UHGV virus genome: UHGV-0701411
Strand: one strand, 5' to 3'
DNA: 18,002 bases
Source of the DNA: a virus
Shown: positions 2,842 through 16,118 of the stretch, piece by piece
Numbering within the stretch: the stretch's first letter is position 1
How the letters are laid out: each line of letters starts with the position of its first letter
Made by a program: the position numbers and the translations under genes
Notes under the pieces: model-generated
Seen by the model: only the letters and a program-made list of their open reading frames with translations
Database searches by the model: none
Told to the model about the DNA's origin: nothing

Positions 2842-5193
2842 ATGCGAAACATTGATCTTATCCGTCAGGTTATCAGTGCGTCTGAAAACAACTGGCCTCA
2901 TGTGCTGGGCTGCCTGAACATAAATGTCCCTGACTCTCCGCGCCGTCATGCTCCCTGCCCTGCATGTGGGGGCAAAGATCGATTCCGGTTCGATGACAAC
3001 GGGCGCGGTAGCTTCATCTGTAATCAGTGCGGCGCTGGTGATGGGCTGGATTTAATTAAACGCGTAAATAACTGCGACACAACAGAGGCGGCGCTTCTTG
3101 CCGCTGATGTTCTGGGTATTGATTACCGGACAACGGAAACACCAGAAGCCACCAGCCAGAAACGGGAACAACTGGAAACCGAGCGCCAGCGACGCGAACA
3201 GGAGCGCCTGAAAAGGGCAGAGAAGGACGAACAACAAAGACGGGATACGTTTTCCCGTCAGTTTGATGACATGCGCAGAAAGGCTGTAAACGGCAAATCT
3301 GATTATCTGGTTGCGAAAGGGGTAGGTGATTTTACATTCCCCGTGTTGCCCGATGGATCTCTGTTGCTGGCGCTGGTGGATAAATCCGGCGCAGTCACAG
3401 CAGCACAGACTATTACCTCACATGGTGAAAAAAGACTCCTGACAGGTTCGGCAAAGCGGGGGGCATATCACGCCATAAACGCACAGAAACGACCTCACAG
3501 CATCATAATTGCTGAGGGGGTGGCTACCGCCCTGTCGTGCCATTTAATTCGCCCTGACGCAATGACAGTGGCAGCAATCGACGCTGGCAACCTGTTGCCA
3601 GTAGCGGAAGTCATGCGCAGAACATATCCACAGGCACAAATCATCATTGCCGCAGATAACGATCACCAGCAAGGAAACTCCGAAAGTGGAGGGATCAACA
3701 CGGGGAAAGATGCCGCAGAGAGGGCCGCTATTTCCGTAGCTGGCTGGGTGTCTCTGCCACCGACTGACTATAAAGCCGACTGGAACGACTATCACCAACA
3801 ACACGGGCTGGCGGCAGCCACAGCAGCATTTAAAGATTCGATGTACCAGCCACGGGGGAAAGGGGCGCAGGTGAAAAATCACAAACAGCCAGTCGGGGCG
3901 CTGAATGAGATCAGTTCTGGCGAGGTGTTAAGCGATGATGAAATTGCTGTCCTCGAAGAAATCAACCGGACGTTTACGCATGTCACCATTGGCGGGAAAC
4001 ACAAGGTGGTGTCGCTAAAGCCTTCTCAAACCGGCGGTGTATCGCACGTTTTCGAGGATTTATCACAATTTCAGCATTATTTTCATCATAAACCGAGAGT
4101 CGCCAGAAAGCTGGCGGGATCGGCGTGGCTGTCATGGAGTGGGAAGAACTACAAGCCAGGAGGCGTAGGATTTTATCCAGTACCAGGCAAATGCCCTGGC
4201 GATGTTTTTAATCTGTATGAGGGGCTGGCACTGGAACCAATTGAAGGAGATTGCACGGTATACCTTAATCACCTGTTGCAGGTTGTCTGTGCCGGTAATG
4301 AAGAGGCATACCAATATCTTATCCAGTGGATGGCGCACATTATCCAAAAGCCTGATGAAAAACCGTCCGTGGCAATCGTGATGAAATCTGTCCCGGGCAC
4401 AGGGAAAGGCACAACGGTTAAACCGCTGCTGCAAATACTGGGGCAGTACGCCGCCCACATTAACGGGGCGGGACATATTTCAGGGCGCTTCAATTCAATA
4501 CTTGCTAACAAGCTACTGGTATTTGCTGACGAAGTGACGATCCACAAGCCGTCTGAAGCTGACAGACTTAAAGCGATTATTAGCGAACCGACGTTTAACC
4601 TTGAGCGCAAGGGAATTGATGCTGAACCAATGCCGAATTTTGCCCGGTTGATATTTGCCAGTAACAGCACACAGGTATTACAGGCAGGGATAAGAGAGCG
4701 CCGCTATCTCGTGCTTGAGCCATCTCCTGAAAAAGCACAGAGCCGGGAGTATTTTGATCGGCTGTACAGTTGGCTTAATGATGGCGGTGCCGCAAAGTTG
4801 CTTTGGCATCTTAAAGGGGTGGATCTCTCAGGTTTTGACCCTCAACGAGCGCCACAGACCGATGCCTTACGTGAAGAAATCTTGCTGGGGCTGTCTGGCG
4901 TTGAATTGTTTCTTTATGGCGAGCTAATCAATGAACCTCCGTTTAATGGCGAAGTCCGTTTGTTTGCAAAGGATATGGTTAGTCGATTTGTAGCGTGGTC
5001 GCTTGAGCGTGGGGAAAAGCTTAAAGAGCCAGCAGCCAGATCACTACTGGGTAAATCACTTGCACAAATGGGGCTGGTGAAGCATGGAAGACCAGACCGA
5101 GGGAATGGCGTGTTCTACGAACTACCAGAGGTCGGAGTTCTACAGGCTGCGTTTGCCCGTCTGATCGGTATGGGGGGTTATGATGTTTTTTAA
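2842..5193 (+). CDS. P4 alpha-type bifunctional DNA primase/helicase (783 aa)
   Basis: N-terminal zinc ribbon CPACGG...CNQCG. Central TOPRIM-like segment (IIIAEGVATALS, AADND). C-terminal P-loop NTPase with Walker A VMKSVPGTGKGT and Walker B LLVFADEV. Architecture matches P4 alpha / D5-like primase-helicases. Confidence 0.93.
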   Translation: MRNIDLIRQVISASENNWPHVLGCLNINVPDSPRRHAPCPACGGKDRFRFDDNGRGSFICNQCGAGDGLDLIKRVNNCDTTEAALLAADVLGIDYRTTETPEATSQKREQLETERQRREQERLKRAEKDEQQRRDTFSRQFDDMRRKAVNGKSDYLVAKGVGDFTFPVLPDGSLLLALVDKSGAVTAAQTITSHGEKRLLTGSAKRGAYHAINAQKRPHSIIIAEGVATALSCHLIRPDAMTVAAIDAGNLLPVAEVMRRTYPQAQIIIAADNDHQQGNSESGGINTGKDAAERAAISVAGWVSLPPTDYKADWNDYHQQHGLAAATAAFKDSMYQPRGKGAQVKNHKQPVGALNEISSGEVLSDDEIAVLEEINRTFTHVTIGGKHKVVSLKPSQTGGVSHVFEDLSQFQHYFHHKPRVARKLAGSAWLSWSGKNYKPGGVGFYPVPGKCPGDVFNLYEGLALEPIEGDCTVYLNHLLQVVCAGNEEAYQYLIQWMAHIIQKPDEKPSVAIVMKSVPGTGKGTTVKPLLQILGQYAAHINGAGHISGRFNSILANKLLVFADEVTIHKPSEADRLKAIISEPTFNLERKGIDAEPMPNFARLIFASNSTQVLQAGIRERRYLVLEPSPEKAQSREYFDRLYSWLNDGGAAKLLWHLKGVDLSGFDPQRAPQTDALREEILLGLSGVELFLYGELINEPPFNGEVRLFAKDMVSRFVAWSLERGEKLKEPAARSLLGKSLAQMGLVKHGRPDRGNGVFYELPEVGVLQAAFARLIGMGGYDVF

Positions 5194-6929: not shown

Positions 6930-7103
6930 ATGGCTATTTCAGTAAAGCCAGTATTGATAAGTGAGAAGCAAATGGAAGCGATAAAGAAAATTCAGGAGGA
7001 GCAGCGTAAAAAATCAGAGGTAGGAGTTGCGCCAACGATCCACGAAATTGCTCGGGGATTAATGGATAAGGCGCTGGCTTACACTTTAACTGGACGTGGG
7101 TAA
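6930..7103 (+). CDS. Small protein (57 aa, MAISVKPVLISEKQMEAIKKIQEEQRKKSEVGVAPTIHEIARGLMDKALAYTLTGRG), possible ribbon-helix-helix fold
   Basis: Absent from the ORF track because it is short. SD AAGGGGG 4-5 nt upstream of ATG 6930; stop TAA at 7101-7103, 4 nt before the next start. The strand-helix-helix pattern is inferred from the sequence only. Confidence 0.45.
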   Translation: MAISVKPVLISEKQMEAIKKIQEEQRKKSEVGVAPTIHEIARGLMDKALAYTLTGRG

Positions 7104-7107
7104 ATCA

Positions 7108-8574
7108 ATGGCTACGTGGCAACAGGGTATTAATTCTGGTGGTTTTCTGGCTGGCATTGGTGCGCAAAATGAGAATGCGCCAAAGGCAAGCGACATTAAC
7201 GCAACGCTTGGTATGATCCGCGAAAACAATGAACTGGCTCGATCAGGTGCAAATAACGTTGCTCTGACAGGTCTTCGTGGTCTGGCTGGAGTTGCTGATA
7301 TTTATAAGCAGCAGCAACAGCAGGAGCGTAAAGCGGCATTCCAGAAAGGTTATGCAGATGCTTATGCGTCCGGTGACAGGGAGCAGATGCGTAATCTTAT
7401 TACAGCATTCCCAGAAGAGTTTGAGGAAGTCCGTAAAGGGATGAGTTATGTCGATGATGCTCAAAGGGATGATTATGGCAATCTGGCGCTCAAAGCACAG
7501 GTAGCCTCATCGCTTGGTCAGGGCGCATTTGGCAGGTTCATGATGGATAATGAGCAGGAGATGCGTCGTTTAGGTATCCCTCCAGAAACTATTGCTGAAA
7601 TGCAGGTTAATGACCCGCAGGGCTTCCAGCATTTCGCAGGTAATCTGGCGCTGTTTTCTCTCGGTCATGAGAAGTATTTCGATATCAAAGACCAAATGGA
7701 AGGTCGGGATATTGAGCGTGGCAAGTTGGCAGAGACAATCCGCAGCAATCAGGCTGGCGAAGCACTTCAGGCGAGAGGGCAGGATATTAGCCGAGCAAAT
7801 GCGTTAACGTCAGCATATGCCCCAACAGCAGCAATGCAGAATTACAATCAGTACGCTCAAATGTTAAAGGCGGATCCAGAGGGGGCGGCGGCATTTGCGG
7901 CAGCGGCTGGAATTAATACAAACGCCAAAAAATTAATGAGTGTTAGAGAAAACGATGATGGCACTGTCACAAAATACTACACAGACGGAAGTGAAGAGCA
8001 TGGAAAACTAAACCAGCCAATATCTGGAGATGGGTTTCGTCCAATAGCTTTGCCAACAGCCCAAAAGATCATGGAAAAGTCGCCAGAAGGGGCTAAAAAA
8101 GCTGCTGGATTTGCATACAGAGTTAGGGATGCTCTTGATTCAATGGATACACTGAAAGGCCAGCTTAGCCCACAGCGAGTGGCGATCATTAATAATGCTT
8201 TGGGTAATGGGACGCTGGCTAACTTAACGCTCAGCCCAACAGAGCAGCAATACGTTGTTAATGCTAATGACGCAATAATGGCAATACTCCGTCAGGAAAC
8301 AGGGGCAGCTATCGTACCTGCTGAAATGTCAAAATATTATCAAATGTATTTCCCTCAGCCTGGCGACTCCACAAAAACCATTGATACCAAGCGCCGGAAG
8401 ATGGAAAACCAGTTCAATTCGCTGAAAGCTGCTTCTGGTCGAGCTTATGATGCTTTGCGGGTTATTTCAGCAGTTGACAGAGGGACTTCTTCTTCGTCGC
8501 AGACATTGCCGCAATCTGAGCAGGTATCACAGCCAGCAGCCAGCAGTAATTTTTCTTCACTATGGGGTGATTAA
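7108..8574 (+). CDS. Large hypothetical protein A (488 aa), Ala/Gln/Gly-rich low-complexity, family not recognised
   Basis: Long ORF with start ATG 7108 (track begins at GTG 7096). Stop overlaps the start of protein B (TAATG at 8572-8576). No catalytic motif seen. Confidence 0.8.
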   Translation: MATWQQGINSGGFLAGIGAQNENAPKASDINATLGMIRENNELARSGANNVALTGLRGLAGVADIYKQQQQQERKAAFQKGYADAYASGDREQMRNLITAFPEEFEEVRKGMSYVDDAQRDDYGNLALKAQVASSLGQGAFGRFMMDNEQEMRRLGIPPETIAEMQVNDPQGFQHFAGNLALFSLGHEKYFDIKDQMEGRDIERGKLAETIRSNQAGEALQARGQDISRANALTSAYAPTAAMQNYNQYAQMLKADPEGAAAFAAAAGINTNAKKLMSVRENDDGTVTKYYTDGSEEHGKLNQPISGDGFRPIALPTAQKIMEKSPEGAKKAAGFAYRVRDALDSMDTLKGQLSPQRVAIINNALGNGTLANLTLSPTEQQYVVNANDAIMAILRQETGAAIVPAEMSKYYQMYFPQPGDSTKTIDTKRRKMENQFNSLKAASGRAYDALRVISAVDRGTSSSSQTLPQSEQVSQPAASSNFSSLWGD

Positions 8575-10679
8575 TGGCTAAAGCATGGAAAGATGTTATC
8601 GCCTCTCCACAGTATCAGGCGTTAGCACCAGAACAAAAAGCGCAGGCTCAGGAGCAATACTTCAATGAAGTCGTGGCCCCGCAAGCCGGAGAAAGTGTAG
8701 AGCAGGCTAAGCAGGCTTTTTATGCTGCCTATCCACTACCATCAACGAATGAAATAGACCGATCCCAATCAGCAACTCAAAATATTCAACATACATCATC
8801 TGATAATTCTCTTGCGTCAGGGTATGCAAAGTTAGCTACTCAGCAAAGAGAGGGGCTTGAGCGTTCAGCAGAACAGGGAGCCAGTCTTGGGGCTGCTATG
8901 CGCGATGCTATAACAGGCGAAAGCCGAATGACTCCAGAGATGGAGAGACTGCAAAATGTCGACCTTGCCCCAGAGTTAACCTCACTCAGCATGGATGCTC
9001 TAAAAGCTCGATGGTCTCAACTTTTCGGCTCTGACGCATCTCAGGAAAAGATTCTTCAGAGCATGGGAGCGAAATTAAGGCAGGATGAGAAGGGTAACAC
9101 TATCGTTTCCCTGCCATCCGGTGATTATGCTCTGAACAAGCCGGGTTTATCGCCGCAAGACGTGGCATCGTTTCTGGCTAATGCGCTGGCGTTTACACCA
9201 GCGGGCAGGGCTGGAACGGTGCTTGGTGCCATAGGAAAATCAGCAGCTACAGATTTAGCACTACAGGGAGCCACCAGCCTTGCTGGTGGAGAAGATATTG
9301 ATCCGTTACAAACGGTAATTTCTGCTGGCATTGGTGGTATTGGTAAGGGGCTGGAAAATACAGCGAGTGCGGTTTCGAGGGCTGTTCGTGGTGATATGTC
9401 GCCTGAAGCAAAGGCTGCTGTCAACTTTGCATCGGAAAGAAATCTGCCGTTAATGACCAGTGACATGCTGAAAGATAAAACCTTTATGCAGAGTCAGGCT
9501 CAGACATTAGGCGAAAGAGTTCCTTTTTTTGGAACCGGTAAGAATCGGCTGAATCAACAACAAGCACGAGAAAATTTAGTCAGAACATTTAGCGATGGTC
9601 TGGGTGGCATTTCTGATAAACAGCTTTATGAATCTGCGACTAAAGGGCAACAAAAATTCATTGAGGCAGCAGGAAAGCGATATAACCGCATAATTGACGC
9701 TATGGGGGATACCCCTGTCGATCTCTCAAACACGGTAAAAGCTATCGACAATCAGATTGCCGTGTTAAGCCGCCCTGGCAAATCTCAGGATAGAGCCGCG
9801 GTAAAAGTCTTGCAGCAATTTAAAGACGATATCACCAGCGGACCAAATGACCTGCGTCTGGCGAGGGAAAACAGAACCGATCTTCGAAAGCGATTTATGG
9901 CGTCATCTGACACTGTTGATAAAGATACGCTCCAGAAAGCCAGCGATATTATCTACAAGGCATATACGGCGGATATGAAAAAAGCCGTAGCCAAAAATCT
10001 TGGAGCAGACGAAGCCATTAATATGGCAAGGGTTGATCGCTCATGGTCTAAATTCAATGACATGATGGGAAGAACGCGCGTTCAAAAGGCAATAGCCAGC
10101 GGCAAGGCCACGCCTGAGGATGTAACAAAACTCGTTTTTAGCCAAAGCCCATCAGAACGTTCTCAGCTTTACAGGCTTCTGGATGACAATGGTAGGCAAA
10201 ACGCACGAGCAGCCATAGTTCAGAATGCTGTAGATAAGGCGACTGATCCGTCTGGAAATATCAGTGTTGAGAAGTTTATTAATGCGTTACACCGGAACAG
10301 GAAGCAATCAGCAACTTTCTTTAAAGGCGTACATGGAAAGGAACTGGACGGCGTTATTAAATACCTCAACGATACAAGACACGCGGCAAAAGCGAACGTT
10401 CAAAACTTAAATGGTCAGCAGCTTTATGGATTGTTAGTTGGTGGTGGCATCATAAACGCAGCAGTATTAGCGGGGATGCTAAAAACGGCTGCGTTTGTTG
10501 TTCCTGCTGCTGGTGCCGTAGGCGGAGCAGCGAAGGCATACGAAAGCCCTGTTATTCGAAATGCCTTGTTACGTCTGGCAAATACGCCAAAAGGTAGCAC
10601 AGCATATGACAGAGCGATCAGTACGGTCACACAATCACTGACCACAGCAGCACAAGCATCGCAAAAGGAAGCTCAATAA
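8574..10679 (+). CDS. Large hypothetical protein B (701 aa), Ala/Gln-rich with a C-proximal Gly/Ala-rich hydrophobic segment
   Basis: ATG 8574 is translationally coupled to A. Hydrophobic stretch LYGLLVGGGIINAAVLAGMLKTAAFVVPAAGAVGGAAKAY encoded at about 10424-10546. No enzymatic motif seen. Confidence 0.85.
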   Translation: MAKAWKDVIASPQYQALAPEQKAQAQEQYFNEVVAPQAGESVEQAKQAFYAAYPLPSTNEIDRSQSATQNIQHTSSDNSLASGYAKLATQQREGLERSAEQGASLGAAMRDAITGESRMTPEMERLQNVDLAPELTSLSMDALKARWSQLFGSDASQEKILQSMGAKLRQDEKGNTIVSLPSGDYALNKPGLSPQDVASFLANALAFTPAGRAGTVLGAIGKSAATDLALQGATSLAGGEDIDPLQTVISAGIGGIGKGLENTASAVSRAVRGDMSPEAKAAVNFASERNLPLMTSDMLKDKTFMQSQAQTLGERVPFFGTGKNRLNQQQARENLVRTFSDGLGGISDKQLYESATKGQQKFIEAAGKRYNRIIDAMGDTPVDLSNTVKAIDNQIAVLSRPGKSQDRAAVKVLQQFKDDITSGPNDLRLARENRTDLRKRFMASSDTVDKDTLQKASDIIYKAYTADMKKAVAKNLGADEAINMARVDRSWSKFNDMMGRTRVQKAIASGKATPEDVTKLVFSQSPSERSQLYRLLDDNGRQNARAAIVQNAVDKATDPSGNISVEKFINALHRNRKQSATFFKGVHGKELDGVIKYLNDTRHAAKANVQNLNGQQLYGLLVGGGIINAAVLAGMLKTAAFVVPAAGAVGGAAKAYESPVIRNALLRLANTPKGSTAYDRAISTVTQSLTTAAQASQKEAQ

Positions 10680-10740
10680 CAGATGACCATGGATGGTTGG
10701 TTATAATAGTAATTAGTATTTTTTCAAATAGTTATGAACA

Positions 10741-11139
10741 TTAACACTTGCCTTTAACATTGCCGACAAATGAGCCTGTAAATGAGCCTATATCAGATCG
10801 ACTAATTGTTCGTGTATGGATCACTTTTCCGTCATTTGAGATTGCCCATGTGACAAGCGTCAGTTGACCATCTCGATAGCTTCTTCCCATCATGGCATTC
10901 GGAGATAGCGGGTAATAATCAATACCTCCACCTATACCATCTTTTGCCAAGATAAGATCCGCCTTCTCTTTACTTATTACCAAATGAAATGTATCTGGTA
11001 TAGATGATAACTTATAGTTATACCCATCTGAACTTGAGGCTTCTTGTCCTTTCAGATCACCAATAATCCAGCATTCAGCGTTCGCTCCAAAAGAAGCAAA
11101 TAATAAACCGGAGACAACCAATCGCTTCAATTGATTCAC
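10741..11139 (-). CDS. Small secreted/periplasmic protein (132 aa) with Sec signal peptide MNQLKRLVVSGLLFASFGANA
   Basis: GTG start at 11139 preceded by SD GGGAGG with a 6-nt spacer on the minus strand; hydrophobic h-region and ANA-E cleavage-like site. The gene is AT-rich (about 41% GC). The track ORF extends to 11208 but that start lacks an RBS. Confidence 0.6.
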   Translation of the reverse strand: MNQLKRLVVSGLLFASFGANAECWIIGDLKGQEASSSDGYNYKLSSIPDTFHLVISKEKADLILAKDGIGGGIDYYPLSPNAMMGRSYRDGQLTLVTWAISNDGKVIHTRTISRSDIGSFTGSFVGNVKGKC

Positions 11140-11254
11140 ACCAACCCTCCCTTTAGCGTTGTTTAGAATGGCAATCATCATATATCCAAGACATGGCATT
11201 TGGTACATAGCTTGGGTCGGGATTTCAAATCCGATCCCCGTTGATGGGGCCGTT

Positions 11255-11410
11255 ACAGTACGCGCATATCCGCTTTATGTGAAACAGGAAGATTTTTCTG
11301 ATATCACTGCCACAGCAAAACACCAATTTCGTGACCAGTACGCGCGCGAGGGGTATCAGTTGCAAAAAGTTTTGCAACTACGTCCGACCAGTACGCGCAC
11401 GATGGAGGGG
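11255..11410. repeat. Three copies of the motif (A/C)CAGTACGCGC(G/A) at 11255-11266, 11333-11353 and 11386-11410, plus a 9-bp-arm palindrome GTTGCAAAAAGTTTTGCAAC at 11359-11378
   Basis: Read directly; they lie in the 520-bp intergenic region upstream of the secreted-protein gene. Confidence 0.65.
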
Positions 11411-11618
11411 AGTACCATAAAACTGCTCTCTACATAAGTCAGAGTGGTGGTGATGTGTTGATTATCGGCGTATATGCGCACAGGACGCGCTATGACGATG
11501 TTTTATGCGGGTACACTAATCACATGTATCTGGTGTGATAAATCGCGTTACATGACCTCTCATGTTGTGCTGGTGGTTATCACGACTTTCTGAATCTGGC
11601 CTTTGCCTGATATTTTGC

Positions 11619-11644
11619 GACAAGTACGCGCGCGTAGCATCGAC
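11619..11644. repeat. GACAAGTACGCGCGCGTAGCA repeat containing the perfect 12-bp palindrome TACGCGCGCGTA (11625-11636)
   Basis: Self-complementary alternating CG core; a near-identical copy lies at 12912-12936. Confidence 0.65.
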
Positions 11645-11662
11645 AGCATACACATTGGATAT

Positions 11663-11884
11663 TCATTTTGTGACCAATGCGATAAGTAGCGGGATAAGAA
11701 TTGATAAAATCAACAGGCCGATGAGCCATTTTTGATTCTCACTGGCTTTGTCTCTATTTTCATCCATCTTATCAATAATTCGACGCTCCATTCCGTGCAT
11801 ATCACCGCGAATGGCAATCATCTCATTGCGAACATCCGAGAAGTGGTTGGCTTGATGTTCAATGTGTGGCGTTCTGCCTTTCAT
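11663..11884 (-). CDS. Small C-terminally anchored membrane protein (73 aa; charged N-terminal helix + TM segment WLIGLLILSILIPLLIALV)
   Basis: ATG 11884 with SD-like GAGGA upstream on the minus strand. The architecture resembles XhlA/holin-like tail-anchored proteins; this is inferred from the sequence, not a database hit. Confidence 0.5.
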   Translation of the reverse strand: MKGRTPHIEHQANHFSDVRNEMIAIRGDMHGMERRIIDKMDENRDKASENQKWLIGLLILSILIPLLIALVTK

Positions 11885-11963
11885 TCCTGATCCTCACCTA
11901 TCGTCACCACCTGCTGGTGTATAAAGGTATTGGCCCAAGCAGCTTTCCAATGGGCACTCATGT

Positions 11964-12419
11964 TTATACGCTGACCTTACAATCAATCACCGCTTTTAAC
12001 TTTTCAGCATTGCTTCCCTGACGCTTCCACGCGCTGTAAATATCTTTATCCCACGCTTTACCAGCTTTTGTTTGATAGCCTGCTTCATTGATCCGTTCAG
12101 CTATCACACGCCCATTATCAAATCCCTGTTGGATGGTATCGGCAATGATCTTTATAACTGCCGTTTCGTTATATGGTTTTGGTGGGATGTTCGGCTTTCC
12201 GGCAATAAGCGACGCAGCGGCTTTTTCCATGCGCTCCACCAGCCCAAGCATTCGTGAATCAATAGACTTTTCCGGCTGCCCCAGCTTCATGCGAATCGCA
12301 TCAACAAGCCAGGAGGTTTTATCTCCTCCAGAAGCGAGAACAGACCGATTAAACTCATCCTGCAATTCAGATGGGATGCGGAACGCGATCAGATTAGATT
12401 TGCTCATTGCAAAGACCAT
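11964..12419 (-). CDS. Ribbon-helix-helix (CopG/Arc-like) DNA-binding regulator with ~100-aa C-terminal extension (start 12419 or 12407)
   Basis: N-terminus SKSNLIAFRIPSELQDEFNRSVLASGGDKTSWLVDAIRMKL has the classic strand-helix-helix pattern. No SD before either ATG, so the mRNA may be leaderless. Divergent from the PerC-like gene, with palindromes in its promoter region. Confidence 0.7.
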   Translation of the reverse strand: MVFAMSKSNLIAFRIPSELQDEFNRSVLASGGDKTSWLVDAIRMKLGQPEKSIDSRMLGLVERMEKAAASLIAGKPNIPPKPYNETAVIKIIADTIQQGFDNGRVIAERINEAGYQTKAGKAWDKDIYSAWKRQGSNAEKLKAVIDCKVSV

Positions 12420-12436
12420 ATCAGTGAGTAATATCC

Positions 12437-12468
12437 ATACAGTATACCACTGTATAACACTGTTATAC
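12437..12468. promoter_or_regulatory. Two overlapping palindromes (ATACAGT-N5-ACTGTAT at 12437-12455; GTATAACA-C-TGTTATAC at 12452-12468), candidate operators
   Basis: Perfect inverted repeats immediately upstream of the RHH regulator start, inside the divergent RHH / PerC-like promoter region. Confidence 0.5.
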
Positions 12469-12571
12469 GCTCAAATATCAGCCAGAAAATAACGGACCAA
12501 TCACAAAGCTATCGCTGTGTTGTTGGTTCAGAGCTGGGCTGTGTTGGTTCAAAATAATCTGAGAGGCAGAA

Positions 12572-12853
12572 ATGATAAGGGACAGGAAAGCTGAAGAGCT
12601 GGAGTCAAAAGGGCTATACCGGAGAGCTGCCGCACGATGGATGGAAGTCATGCTGTTATGCACCGAGGACGATGATCGGGAATGGATAAAGCGCCGCCGT
12701 GAAACGTGTCTGGAGAACGTGAAGCGCCCGCCCGTGAAGGTTGAGGACTTTGGCGACCTGCATAAAGCTGTTACCGAAACGCAACACCGCATGGGGATAG
12801 CGCAACCGAACGGTAACGCCTTCCGGTTAAATGGCGGCAAGAGGCAAAGGTAG
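12572..12853 (+). CDS. PerC-family-like transcriptional regulator (93 aa, MIRDRKAEELESKGLYRRAAARWMEV...)
   Basis: SD GAGAGG 5 nt upstream of ATG 12572. The N-terminal AEELE-KGL-RRAA-RW pattern resembles PerC-type prophage activators; the family call is from memory. Confidence 0.55.
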   Translation: MIRDRKAEELESKGLYRRAAARWMEVMLLCTEDDDREWIKRRRETCLENVKRPPVKVEDFGDLHKAVTETQHRMGIAQPNGNAFRLNGGKRQR

Positions 12854-12857
12854 ACCA

Positions 12858-12902
12858 CCAGAGGGAAATCATCCTCTGGCTGGCGGTTTCTGGTATTTCG
12901 GG
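12858..12902 (+). terminator. Hairpin CCAGAGG-N8-CCTCTGG followed by a T-rich tract; possible terminator of the PerC-like gene
   Basis: 7-bp perfect stem 5 nt after the stop codon; downstream tract GGTTTCTGGTATTTCG is only moderately U-rich. Confidence 0.4.
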
Positions 12903-12911
12903 ACAAGTACG

Positions 12912-12936
12912 CGCGCGCGTAGCACCCAATCGGTGA
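12912..12936. repeat. GACAAGTACGCGCGCGCGTAGCACC repeat (14-bp palindrome TACGCGCGCGCGTA at 12918-12931)
   Basis: Fifth copy of the GTACGCGC motif family; near-identical to 11619-11644. Confidence 0.65.
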
Positions 12937-13150
12937 GGAAATAGCGGCGACCTGAATGGTCAAAATCACAACGCAGCTATCCCCGTAAGCAGCGCTTAAC
13001 GGAATAGCAGTAACCTGAATCCAGTGGGGAGGGGGTAGTCAAATCTCTACAGCCCTGACTATCCGGGACTGCCAGCCCCATCGTTTTTTTATACCCGCGA
13101 AAAATGAAATTTAATCCGGGCGTGTTTCATCCTTCCAGAGGGTATGACGT

Positions 13151-13336
13151 ATGACACCACGCGAAATAGCCTTATTGACCATCGCCAAACTTGAGCACGG
13201 AGGCCACCAGCTTACACAGGCAGATCAACGGGAGATAGAACGATCAGTTAATGCCGATATAGCCCGGCGCGACAGGTTCCGCGAAATGATGCGAGCACCT
13301 GCCTACCAGTGGAAGAAGCCAGCGCCGCGCAGGTAG
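13151..13336 (+). CDS. Hypothetical small protein (61 aa)
   Basis: SD AGAGGG 6 nt upstream of ATG 13151; basic C-terminus. Confidence 0.45.
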   Translation: MTPREIALLTIAKLEHGGHQLTQADQREIERSVNADIARRDRFREMMRAPAYQWKKPAPRR

Positions 13337-13456
13337 ATATGGGATTATTCCACATGTAACTTATGCGTATTAAGCAAATTTCCTTTATTCACCTTTACAG
13401 AATTGTGAGTACGTCAGTATCGTTATCCTTCCGATTCGCATTTATTCAGGATTTGC

Positions 13457-13999
13457 ATGTACCAGCTAAAGATAACCATCCGAGACAGCAAACCACCTAT
13501 ATGGCGGCGTGTGCTGGTTCCAGAGCAAATCCCCTTTAGTAAACTTCATGCCGTGATCCAGTTAGCTTTTGGCTGGCATGACGAACACCTGTATATGTTC
13601 GAGAAAGGGCGTAAAGGTGATCCAGGTAGCGAGTATCACGTATGGGGTGAGGATGAAAGCATGGGTAACGCGGCAATCACGCCACTATGGGCGGCGCTCC
13701 AGAATGAGGGTGACAAGCTGGTTTACACGTATGACTTTGGCGACTGGTGGGATTGCGTCATTGTGCTGGAGAAGCAAACACACGATACGAGTAATCAGCC
13801 CATTAGCTGCCTGCGTGGGAAAGGCACCACCCCGGCGGAAAACTCAGGCGGCTTGCATGGTTACAATGAATTGCTATTACAGGCCAGAGAGTCTGATAAT
13901 CCTGAGCAGGCCGAGATCCACAATTTCCTGATGCTGGATATTGAACGCCGGGTTTACGACCTGAGCCGCATCAACGACAGATTGCAGGCTATTAACTGA
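13457..13999 (+). CDS. Plasmid pRiA4b ORF-3-like (MM3350-like) family protein (180 aa)
   Basis: Hallmark motifs YQLKITIRDSKPPIWRRVLVP ... LHAVIQLAFGWHDEHLYMF ... YTYDFGDWWDCVIVLE match the conserved signature of this family as I recall it. Confidence 0.8.
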   Translation: MYQLKITIRDSKPPIWRRVLVPEQIPFSKLHAVIQLAFGWHDEHLYMFEKGRKGDPGSEYHVWGEDESMGNAAITPLWAALQNEGDKLVYTYDFGDWWDCVIVLEKQTHDTSNQPISCLRGKGTTPAENSGGLHGYNELLLQARESDNPEQAEIHNFLMLDIERRVYDLSRINDRLQAIN

Positions 14000-14471: not shown

Positions 14472-14738
14472 CGTGTACACAAGGGTGTACCTACTGAGAA
14501 AACGCATTACAAGAAACACAGCAACCACGGGAGTTTAAAGCCACTACTCAATAAACAGATCCAGAATATCGAATAAGCTATCAGCAAAAATCACCAAGCA
14601 GCAAAAAACCATAAAGCCCGCGAAATGTCGGGCTTTTTTGTTATCATGAGCTATCATAACGACGCAACAAAGCGCATGATTATGGTGTACACAAAGGTGT
14701 ACCCAATGAGGTTTGGGTACATTGCTTTGGGTACACCC
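14472..14738. repeat. Repeat family GTGTACACAA(A/G)GGTGTACC (14472-14492, 14684-14704) and GGGTACATTGCTTTGGGTACACCC (14715-14738) upstream of the integrase; candidate Int arm-type (attL) sites
   Basis: Near-identical 20-mers about 210 bp apart, directly 5' of the integrase start; related copies at 6555-6575, 11192-11207 and 11505-11515. Confidence 0.55.
14613..14640 (+). terminator. Rho-independent terminator (AAAGCCCG-loop-CGGGCTTT then TTTTTTG)
   Basis: Perfect 8-bp stem with 8-nt loop and a T-run; A-run on the 5' side makes it potentially bidirectional. Sits between the att-like repeats and the integrase start. Confidence 0.7.
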
Positions 14739-14765
14739 CCTATTCAAAGTTTGGATATTCGCAAA

Positions 14766-16025
14766 ATGCCAAAACTAACAGACATGCAGATCCGCGCATG
14801 GATTAAGAGCGGAGAGCGATTCGAGGGGCGGGCAGACGGTAACGGTTTATACCTACGTTACCGTGAAGCCGACAAAACCCCCACATGGAGATTCCGCTAT
14901 AAACTCGCAGGGAAGTCCCGCGCCATGCTAATTGGTTCGTATAGCGAGATATCACTATCAAAGGCCAGAGAGACAGCCAAAGAGCTGTCAGCCAGAGTTG
15001 CTCTTGGCTATGACGTAGCAGCAGAGAAACAGGAACGAAAAGCTGAAGCACTGGCAAAAATGGAGGCTGAGAAAAACGCCATGCGTGTTTCAGATCTGGC
15101 CTCCGAATACTTCGAGCGCCAGATACTTCCGAGATGGAAACATCCCGATATCCTTCGCCGGAGAATTGATAAGGATATTAACCCCTGCATTGGGCATATG
15201 AAGGTAGAGGACGTTAAGCCACGCCACATTGACGACATGTTGAAAGGTATCGTTGACCGAGGAGCACCAACGATAGCAACAGATGTATTACGCTGGACAC
15301 GCCGTATCTTTGACTACGGGATAAAACGCCACGCTCTGGAGATAAACCCTTGTTCAGCGTTTGAAGTATCTGATGCTGGTGGTAAAGAGGTTTCCCGCGA
15401 CCGTTGGCTAACTCGCGATGAGCTTATCAGGCTATTCGAGGCTATGCGCACCGCAAAAGGATTCAGCCGCCAGAACGAACTGACATTTAAGCTATTGCTG
15501 GCACTATGCGTTCGTAAGATGGAGTTATGCGCCGCACGATGGGAAGAGTTTGATTTAGATGGTGCGGTATGGCATTTGCCGGAAGAACGCAGCAAAAACG
15601 GAGACCCTATTGATATACCTCTACCTTCTCCAGCCGTTGAATGGTTGAGAGAACTACACACCTTTTCATGTAATAGCGCATGGGTGCTTCCAGCCAGGAA
15701 GATGCAAAACAGAATGATCCCACATATTCAGGAAAGCACTTTGCCCGTAGCACTGGCTAAGGTTCGCGCCGAAATGCCGGATGTGCCTAATTTCACGATT
15801 CACGACTTCCGACGCACCGCACGTACTCATTTAGCAGCGTTGGGCGTTGATCCGGTAGTCGCAGAAAGATGCCTTAATCACAAAATTAAAGGTGTGGAGG
15901 GTATCTATAACCGTCACCAGTATTTTGATGAGCGTAAAGCGGCGCTGGCGCAGTGGTGTGATTTGCTGGTGGCACTGGAGCGCGGCGAAGAATACAACGT
16001 GACGCCTATCAGAAAGGCAAAGTAA
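14766..16025 (+). CDS. Tyrosine site-specific integrase, P4/CP4-57 type (419 aa; alternative starts 14706 or 14625)
   Basis: N-terminus MPKLTDMQIRAWIK...GLYLRY...WRFRYK matches the P4-type Int N-terminal pattern. C-terminal catalytic signature HDFRRTARTHL ... Y. The track ORF begins at 14625 but overlaps the terminator hairpin, so a downstream start is preferred. Confidence 0.93.
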   Translation: MPKLTDMQIRAWIKSGERFEGRADGNGLYLRYREADKTPTWRFRYKLAGKSRAMLIGSYSEISLSKARETAKELSARVALGYDVAAEKQERKAEALAKMEAEKNAMRVSDLASEYFERQILPRWKHPDILRRRIDKDINPCIGHMKVEDVKPRHIDDMLKGIVDRGAPTIATDVLRWTRRIFDYGIKRHALEINPCSAFEVSDAGGKEVSRDRWLTRDELIRLFEAMRTAKGFSRQNELTFKLLLALCVRKMELCAARWEEFDLDGAVWHLPEERSKNGDPIDIPLPSPAVEWLRELHTFSCNSAWVLPARKMQNRMIPHIQESTLPVALAKVRAEMPDVPNFTIHDFRRTARTHLAALGVDPVVAERCLNHKIKGVEGIYNRHQYFDERKAALAQWCDLLVALERGEEYNVTPIRKAK

Positions 16026-16118
16026 CCGAACAGACCGGAACTAGCCCGACGGGGCGAAAAGCGGAAAGCCTTACCGCCTGTTCCGGTCACTCTTTAAGGC
16101 AGCGCGAAAGGTTACGCT

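Follow-up and report, generated by a model that had tools for sequence, protein, structure and literature searches.

Copies of a small-terminase gene core in a P4-like satellite island of Escherichia coli

The repeated motif and the island around it

The stretch of DNA analysed here (the window) comprises 18,002 nt of the virus genome UHGV-0701411 and includes the right-hand two thirds of a satellite island found in E. coli, an integrative element of P4-like type. It contains several copies of a short motif whose core also occurs in the small-terminase (terS) genes of Sf6-type phages. The 9-mer AGTACGCGC is present five times, at 11257, 11337, 11390, 11623 and 12906, always on the plus strand, against a mean of 0.13 in dinucleotide-preserving shuffles, none of which (0/200) reached five copies; the 16-mer GACMAGTACGCGCRCG is present four times against 0.01 expected. 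The five repeats noticed in an earlier inspection of the letters alone (the sequence-only reading) are real and non-random, and the perfect self-complementary cores that it described in the last two were found as TACGCGCGCGTA at 11625-11636 (copy 4) and TACGCGCGCGCGTA at 12908-12921 (copy 5). The position that it gave for the last copy, 12912, falls inside the copy, which actually begins at 12902.

Copy 1 (11252-11268, CAGTACGCGCA) was located by repeat search and amounts to the 11-nt core alone. Copy 2 spans 11326-11352 (ATTTCGTGACCAGTACGCGCGCGAGG) and copy 3 spans 11379-11405 (CGACCAGTACGCGCACG), the latter having decayed to GTACGCACAC or GTATGCACAC in most relatives. Together with its extended flank (CTGGCC..TATTTTGCGACAAGTACGCGCGCGTAGCATCGA), copy 4 occupies 11596-11643 and forms the left boundary of a variable cassette region. 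The fifth copy, with its flank, extends from 12869 to 12927 and consists of a 51-nt stretch that aligns to terS with a 2-nt gap, breaking the frame, followed by CGTAGCACC; copies 4 and 5 are paralogous across ~50 nt (CTGGC..TATTTyGsGACAAGTACGCGCGCG(CG)TAGCAyC). A decayed sixth copy, cgtccaCGCGCGtgacgttaacg, lies on the same strand at 752-772, in the leader ~110 nt upstream of the isrK/C4 immunity RNAs; the homologous position of another P4-like island (L193) reads ATTTTGCGACAAGTACGCGCGCGcgacgttaacgaaatgagcgcg, after which its sequence continues as in the window. Every copy in the window is either non-coding or broken in frame.

Between copies 2 and 3 lies a 22-bp A/T-rich palindrome, AGTTGCAAAA-AG-TTTTGCAACT (11358-11379), with 10-bp arms that are invariant among relatives around a central dinucleotide of AG, AA or TT. 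The palindrome of the sequence-only reading is real and slightly longer than the 20 bp given there. This palindrome was considered as a general partner of the motif and ruled out, being seen in this island family alone. A related family of 28-nt repeats is represented by a single unit (GGAAGATTTTTCTGATATCACTGCCACAG) at 11287-11315 on the plus strand; the same unit, GGAAGATTTTTCCGACATCACTACGCGAG, is arrayed in an enterobacterial locus (L177).

Copies 1-3 overlap an unannotated open reading frame (ORF; 11159-11437), which is continuous in the related island L002 (~130 amino acids (aa); window-equivalent 11168-11560). The three copies could on this account belong to a protein-coding gene (ORF 11168-11437, ~130 aa in relatives) with the motif as a peptide repeat, and the L002 frame is indeed open from an ATG (window 11168) to a TGA (window ~11550) with a protein-like translation. 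The copies, however, fall in three different frames of the ORF, and a change in the length of a G run (~11407-11412) interrupts it in the window and in another relative, L040. The ORF has no Pfam match and is not annotated by RefSeq, and the homologous repeat array of L177 is full of stop codons. It is probably no true gene, and we rejected a protein repeat as very improbable on the grounds of the three frames, the broken frame and the missing family match.

At the left of the window, Rfam places the C4 and isrK antisense immunity RNAs at 883-1110, within a mechanically called Ash-family ORF ('Ash', 502-1569). A zinc-ribbon/Toprim/DUF5906 primase is encoded at 2842-5193 and a PerC-family protein at 12572-12853; the island also has a PRiA4_ORF3 gene. 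A second, tandem island starts after 14396, with an integrase (14625-16025) and then an int-alpA RNA (16034-16100). Two P22 ejection proteins have homologues in the island: gp20 in the ORF at 7096-8574, an Inj_translocase with 55% identity across its N-terminal half, and gp16 in the ORF at 8574-10679, a DNA transfer protein/transglycosylase. Among the phage matches listed for these proteins, all belong to P22-like phages or a related group bar two weak ones, to a Vibrio and an Aeromonas phage. The presence of gp20 and gp16 homologues in a P4-like island suggests interaction with P22-like podoviruses.

A cos site of the phiP27/SfV/ST64B/SKA5 (HK97/phiP27) type occupies 13024-13125, between the PerC gene and a 61-aa ORF, and begins ~100 bp downstream of copy 5. 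Its blastn matches fall on the genome ends of SfV, SfII and ST64B and on the cos annotated in phiP27, and the homology extends to the cohesive-end regions of SfIV and SKA5. The cos of phiP27 sits between an HNH gene and the terminase genes (HNH-cos-TerS-TerL type), and its 10 nt align to window ~13070-13079. Phage cos regions homologous to this site do not contain the motif, and a role for the motif as a cosB-like part of a helper cos was rejected. No Rpp-like or TerS-like gene was identified among the window proteins. Between copy 5 and the cos site there is a direct repeat, AATAGCGGCGACCTGAAT (12940-12957) and AATAGCAGTAACCTGAAT (13003-13020), the second unit of which directly adjoins the cos homology at its start; both units may be places at which a terminase binds the satellite (cosB/cosQ-like).

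A truncated replication origin is represented on the plus strand at 12521-12551, upstream of PerC, by two TGTTGGTTCA iterons. Since the full array in relatives has three iterons in direct orientation, then an AT-rich stretch and three more in inverted orientation (L040, 1590-1720; L002, 7730-7860), the window carries a deletion of ~105 bp in this probable origin. The motif copies were rejected as iterons for the P4-like primase because this classical origin, with different iterons, lies upstream of PerC; the motif is not beside an AT-rich region, and the iterons are TGTTGGTTCA here and GGGATAA in another element, L227. The 61-aa ORF (13151-13336) belongs to a family of ~61-67 aa (..HQLxPAELRxLxRQLAExPVIARRYREMM..) with members in L002 (7470-7660) and L227 (96-299), which recurs beside origins with differing iterons. 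In L227 the motif lies directly ahead of this homologue and of a different origin, and the ORF starts exactly at the motif (MGFRDQYARAK..).

The window is also rich in Chi sites (GCTGGTGG), with 14 in 18 kb against 0.57 expected from shuffles, one of them at 11569-11576, 45 nt upstream of copy 4. This density is roughly three times what we take to be the E. coli average, and such dense Chi sites may protect linear DNA from RecBCD.

Identity of the core with small-terminase genes

The motif core, GAC(C/A)A(G/A)TACGCGCGCG preceded by TTTyGn, is the DNA that encodes the invariant (E)FRD(Q/K)YARAR peptide of Sf6-family terS, at the end of the DNA-binding domain. This identity, like the cos site ~100 bp downstream of copy 5, was not recognised in the sequence-only reading. 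In one locus (L162) the ORF that spans the motif matches Pfam Sf6_terminase (E = 1e-41) and has a large-terminase gene after it, and an intact terS was present in six or seven of the 13 non-island matches among viral contigs, where the motif codes for (E)FRDQYARAR(E) directly after the helix-turn-helix (HTH) region GRPS..(V)FRWL. The corresponding sequence in Sf6 gene 1, which likewise has an 18-nt identity to the window copies, is TTTCGCGACAAGTACGCG, with the motif at ~nt 163-189, and an E. coli prophage terS (L316) reads TTTCGTGACCAGTACGCG, which is identical to copy 2 at 18/18 nt. Within Sf6 gene 1, the packaging site is said to lie in the portion coding for the DNA-binding domain.

A 120-nt DNA profile was built from 52 terS genes collected by peptide pattern rather than by DNA, so that codon choice was not selected for. 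Searched against the window with nhmmer, this profile matches at motif copies 5, 2, 4 and 3 alone, with E-values of 1.1e-6, 7e-5, 1.2e-3 and 0.07, respectively. The match at copy 5 covers 51 nt (12869-12919) and reaches the FRWLA-coding TGGCTGGC. This copy thereby lines up with the terS region for FRWLA..EFRDQYARA, out of frame owing to a gap of 2 nt, and it was also aligned with the terS genes of Sf6 and of an E. coli prophage. The copies do not code for TerS, as their frames differ or are broken, and ORF 11159-11437 has no Pfam match to offer in this respect either. The window has no intact Sf6_terminase (PF20901) ORF with HTH domain, oligomerisation helix and barrel; its TerS similarity is confined to the motif and the FRWLA stretch and is frame-broken.

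The core is written with markedly uniform codons inside terS. For D-Q-Y-A-R-A the modal codons are GAC (33/39), CAA (28/41), TAC (43/44), GCG (25/44), CGC (31/41) and GCG (22/44). We simulated codons for each locus from its own usage and took the sum of modal-codon counts as the statistic; the observed value for DQYARA was 182, against a simulated 116.5 +/- 5.4 (z ~ +12). Among four control peptides, KKYGDK was also raised (186 observed, 139.7 +/- 6.5 simulated, z ~ +7), and the remaining three had z of ~0 to +2: RLRVDARKW (87 observed, 78.6 simulated), EILDIAD (127 and 118.4) and GRPS (46 and 53.2). The 18 nt under codon constraint in terS are the same core that is conserved in the non-coding copies. 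DQYARA is thus the strongest outlier, with one control also raised, and the codon evidence is supportive rather than decisive.

When 5426 complete E. coli genomes were searched with Sf6 gene 1 as query, at least 232 proved to carry a P22-like prophage with a full-length Sf6-type terS. About 400 further genomes match just the last ~90 nt of the gene, which fits swapping of the part coding for the DNA-binding domain among P22-like prophages.

Distribution of the motif and what it says of its origin

A 522-bp block with copies 1-4 is present in 545 of the 5426 E. coli genomes at 95-99% identity, and a 55-mer around copy 4 in 548 (~10%), at a median of one place and a maximum of five per genome. 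Among 185,579 species-representative genomes, a single metagenome-assembled genome (MAG) has the exact 20-mer of copies 4 and 5. Occurrence in ~10% of E. coli genomes, at one place each, together with near-absence elsewhere, indicates that the motif is island-specific and not like the repetitive extragenic palindromic (REP) elements. The sequence-only reading had proposed such a whole-genome scan to separate an island-specific motif from a generic REP element; the hundreds of sites expected of the latter were not seen. The single exception is an alphaproteobacterial MAG (UBA6187, 40% G+C; L124), in which a 31-nt near-identical copy of copy 5, including its GTAGCA tail, lies at 1963-1993. It is on the opposite strand, inside 17 aa inserted in frame into a Toprim primase ORF.

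Homology among related islands mostly stops at 11643, just after copy 4, and at least three different cassettes are found beyond this point. A metagenomic variant (L157) carries a natural deletion that brings together the flank to the left of copy 2 and the flank to the right of copy 4, and two haplotypes are without exactly the interval from copy 2 to copy 3. The L157 junction and the copy 2-copy 3 deletions indicate that the repeats act as recombination substrates in nature. The process looks passive and repeat-mediated; the earlier suggestion of recombination sites is borne out in part, by deletions and cassette breakpoints at the copies, and no dedicated recombinase is implicated.

The copies might accordingly be nothing but terS relics without a binding function of their own, short pieces of helper terS genes taken up by recombination and persisting as direct repeats that mediate deletions and module exchange, an explanation that we regard as doubtful. 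It would account for the break in island homology exactly after copy 4 with its alternative cassettes, for the natural deletions that join copy 2 to copy 4 and to copy 3, and for the resemblance of copy 5 to a frame-broken terS fragment of ~50 nt. Within E. coli, ~13% of sites vary in the copies and in their flanks alike, so the copies are no better conserved than their surroundings, and copy 3 is decaying. Neutral decay should be uniform, however, and the codon uniformity of the core within terS is left unexplained; the single orientation of all five window copies is a further point against relics. The distribution of the core beyond E. coli, described below, speaks against relics as well.

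A metagenome scan with ATTTYGNKACMAGTACGCGCGCG as query returned, besides the E. coli island, ~30 contigs (G+C content 50-64%) that originate in soil, peat, freshwater and marine samples, and the core is also present in other enterobacterial islands. These contigs have ~30 nt alone in common, (g)gaATTTyGnGACCAGTACGCGCGCG(cg)agg, in flanks that are unrelated. At the environmental loci outside terS, tblastn found no TerS similarity beyond the ~30-nt core, and no terS gene was present in the stretches examined; these copies were thus ruled out as decayed terS genes. That some 30 unrelated contigs keep the core in flanks without a trace of terS is not what relics would lead us to expect. A scan of viral contigs with a 16-mer gave mostly chance singletons in high-G+C phages and was too unspecific to be of use.

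Outside terS the core is often repeated in arrays of a single orientation, and the recurrence of such arrays in lineages far apart again argues against relics: L173 has at least seven units at ~55-nt spacing (62% G+C), L211 has three and the enterobacterial L177 has four. On the minus strand of L177 (5380-6033), at least ten copies of a 28-nt repeat, GAAGATTTTTCyGAyATCACTACGCGAG, are interleaved with motif copies. The only match of this array in E. coli genomes is an uninformative 70 nt resembling an insertion-sequence end.

The surroundings of some of these loci raise the possibility of an operator or iteron-like function. The copies would then be sites for a DNA-binding protein encoded by the element (an AlpA/Vis-type or other HTH regulator) that controls transcription of island operons or excision, and the resemblance to terS would be secondary. 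The L177 array, with motif and 28-nt repeats, lies upstream of an int-alpA-like region and directly ahead of alpA and an excisionase gene. In the P4-like island L226 an intact copy is found ~150 nt upstream of isrK/C4, and L193 has its copy at the corresponding position. Transcription runs in the same direction as the copies, and integrases and excisionases are enriched among the neighbouring genes, which comprise integrases, resolvases, primases (DUF927, DUF3987), Ash, AntA and excisionase. Comparison of 150 neighbouring ORFs by all-against-all BLASTP and with Pfam nevertheless revealed no protein family common to all motif loci, and the neighbours show a general enrichment of mobile-element genes only. 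The sole characterised AlpA site, GGGACG-N5-GGTA of P. aeruginosa (PMC7969949), does not match the motif. There are no promoter-like sites beside the window copies, and an operator role would not explain the presence of the core, in constrained codons, within phage terS. We consider this explanation unlikely. The proteins first named as possible regulators, a ribbon-helix-helix (RHH)-like protein and PerC, fare no better, as the divergent promoter region of their genes (12420-12570) has no copy and the motif is present in many elements without those genes.

It is still less probable, and indeed highly improbable, that the copies act in cis as structured RNA, intrinsic terminators or Z-DNA-forming signals. 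A short hairpin could arise from the 12-14-nt CG palindromes, the position of copies 4 and 5 is just 3' of genes, and alternating CG runs are prone to adopt Z-DNA. Against this, no terminator-like site was found in 10600-13500 and no T run follows any copy, and the stretches around copies 5 and 4 fold in an ordinary manner (z = -1.0, +1.5 and +0.3), so that the folding of the flanks proposed in the sequence-only reading lends no support to its idea of terminators or structured RNA. The conserved part includes the non-palindromic prefix TTTyGnGACmAG, and most copies elsewhere end in CGAGG, with no palindrome. No Rfam 15 family overlaps the motif in the window or in 25 further motif-bearing loci; the window matches (C4, isrK and int-alpA) are all away from it, and a c4-a1b1 match at 870-922 is below threshold.

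A packaging-signal reading and its relation to known systems

We tentatively favour a reading that we hold to be possible rather than probable, in which the motif copies are pac-like recognition sites for the Sf6-type TerS of a helper phage. The core would be all or part of the site that an Sf6-type TerS binds inside its own gene (pac); a P4-like satellite without a terS of its own would carry several copies as packaging-recognition or decoy sites, and a P22-like helper with an Sf6-type TerS would load its terminase onto the satellite DNA. As direct repeats, the copies would be substrates for deletion and module exchange as a side effect. The pac site of many phages, including that of Sf6 (Leavitt 2013), is located inside terS according to a preprint that cites that work (bioRxiv 10.1101/851345). 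A link to such a helper is supported by the island's P22 gp20-like and gp16-like ejection proteins together with the P22-like prophages that carry Sf6-type terS, and the location of all five copies on one strand favours a role in packaging. The comparison itself shows the identity of the core with terS, the non-coding state and shared orientation of the copies, the presence of the core in other mobile elements and its uniform codons within terS, all of which we take as support; the binding of TerS to the core and any such role are inferred from it.

Several points weigh against this interpretation. Since the island already carries a cos site, of another phage type, it does not need a second packaging signal. 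The terS genes of E. coli and Shigella part from the island copies immediately after TACGCG, where the phages continue with AAGGCA and the island with CGCGCG. The uniform codons of the control KKYGDK show that part of the codon signal is general, and within E. coli the copies are conserved no better than their flanks, copy 3 is decaying and several of the changes in the copies are CpG transitions. In other P4-like islands the motif precedes the immunity RNAs or alpA, beside more divergent 28-nt repeats, which is where regulatory operators would be expected. In vitro, finally, the binding of TerS to pac is generally weak and poorly sequence-specific (PMC9611059).

A broader and more doubtful version of the packaging-signal reading would extend it to other elements. 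The terS-core copies and arrays would then form a widespread class of cis-acting element, not described before, by which satellites and integrative elements across the Proteobacteria capture or titrate Sf6-type TerS. The most conserved coding segment of terS (TTTyGnGACCARTACGCGCGCG) would double as a portable packaging signal, and the in-frame insertion in the primase ORF of L124 might be a further example of such embedding.

Were the core a recognition element, it would provide a defined candidate site of 16-23 nt for a very widespread TerS family; we know of no short consensus site in general use for Sf6-type TerS, and a literature search for the motif sequence returned nothing relevant. It would also offer a sequence signature for finding satellites and phage-hijacking elements without packaging genes, and the island would be a satellite that combines two helper signals, a cos of the HK97/phiP27 type and a pac of the P22/Sf6 type. 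Even if the copies are relics only, these E. coli islands exchange cargo cassettes at the junctions that they mark.

The repeats have features in common with several known sequence classes. Like REP elements and bacterial interspersed mosaic elements (BIMEs), they are GC-rich, partly palindromic and intergenic; unlike these, they are found in one island, in five copies and in ~10% of strains, with no REP-like stem-loop predicted. The boundary or linker sequences of mosaic lambdoid phages resemble them in being short conserved sequences at a recurrent breakpoint, here after copy 4, with alternative cassettes beyond, whereas the island core is conserved far beyond the island family and forms arrays. 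The R sites of lambda cosB and the pacL/pacR boxes of SPP1 are likewise several short repeats in the same orientation near a packaging site, an arrangement that fits an oligomeric TerS; four of the island copies, however, are 1.3-1.8 kb from cos, and there is no sequence similarity.

The closest parallel in sequence is with pac sites inside terS, as in P22 gene 3 and Sf6 gene 1, since the core is a segment of Sf6-family terS that codes for part of the DNA-binding domain with constrained codons. The island sequence differs in lying outside terS, in being non-coding, in having five or six co-oriented copies and in the absence of terminase genes. Packaging signals are pirated by satellites in several ways: P4 carries a cos site, the phage-inducible chromosomal islands (PICIs) of E. 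coli combine cos with Rpp, and the Staphylococcus aureus pathogenicity islands (SaPIs) use a pac together with a TerS of their own. The island resembles these in that a satellite carries a recognition sequence of its helper, and it has a helper-type cos; it differs in that the candidate signal is a multi-copy fragment of helper terS coding sequence. Packaging-signal piracy by satellites is thus known already, and the island described here may, in our tentative view, represent a variant of it that uses copies of the terS core.

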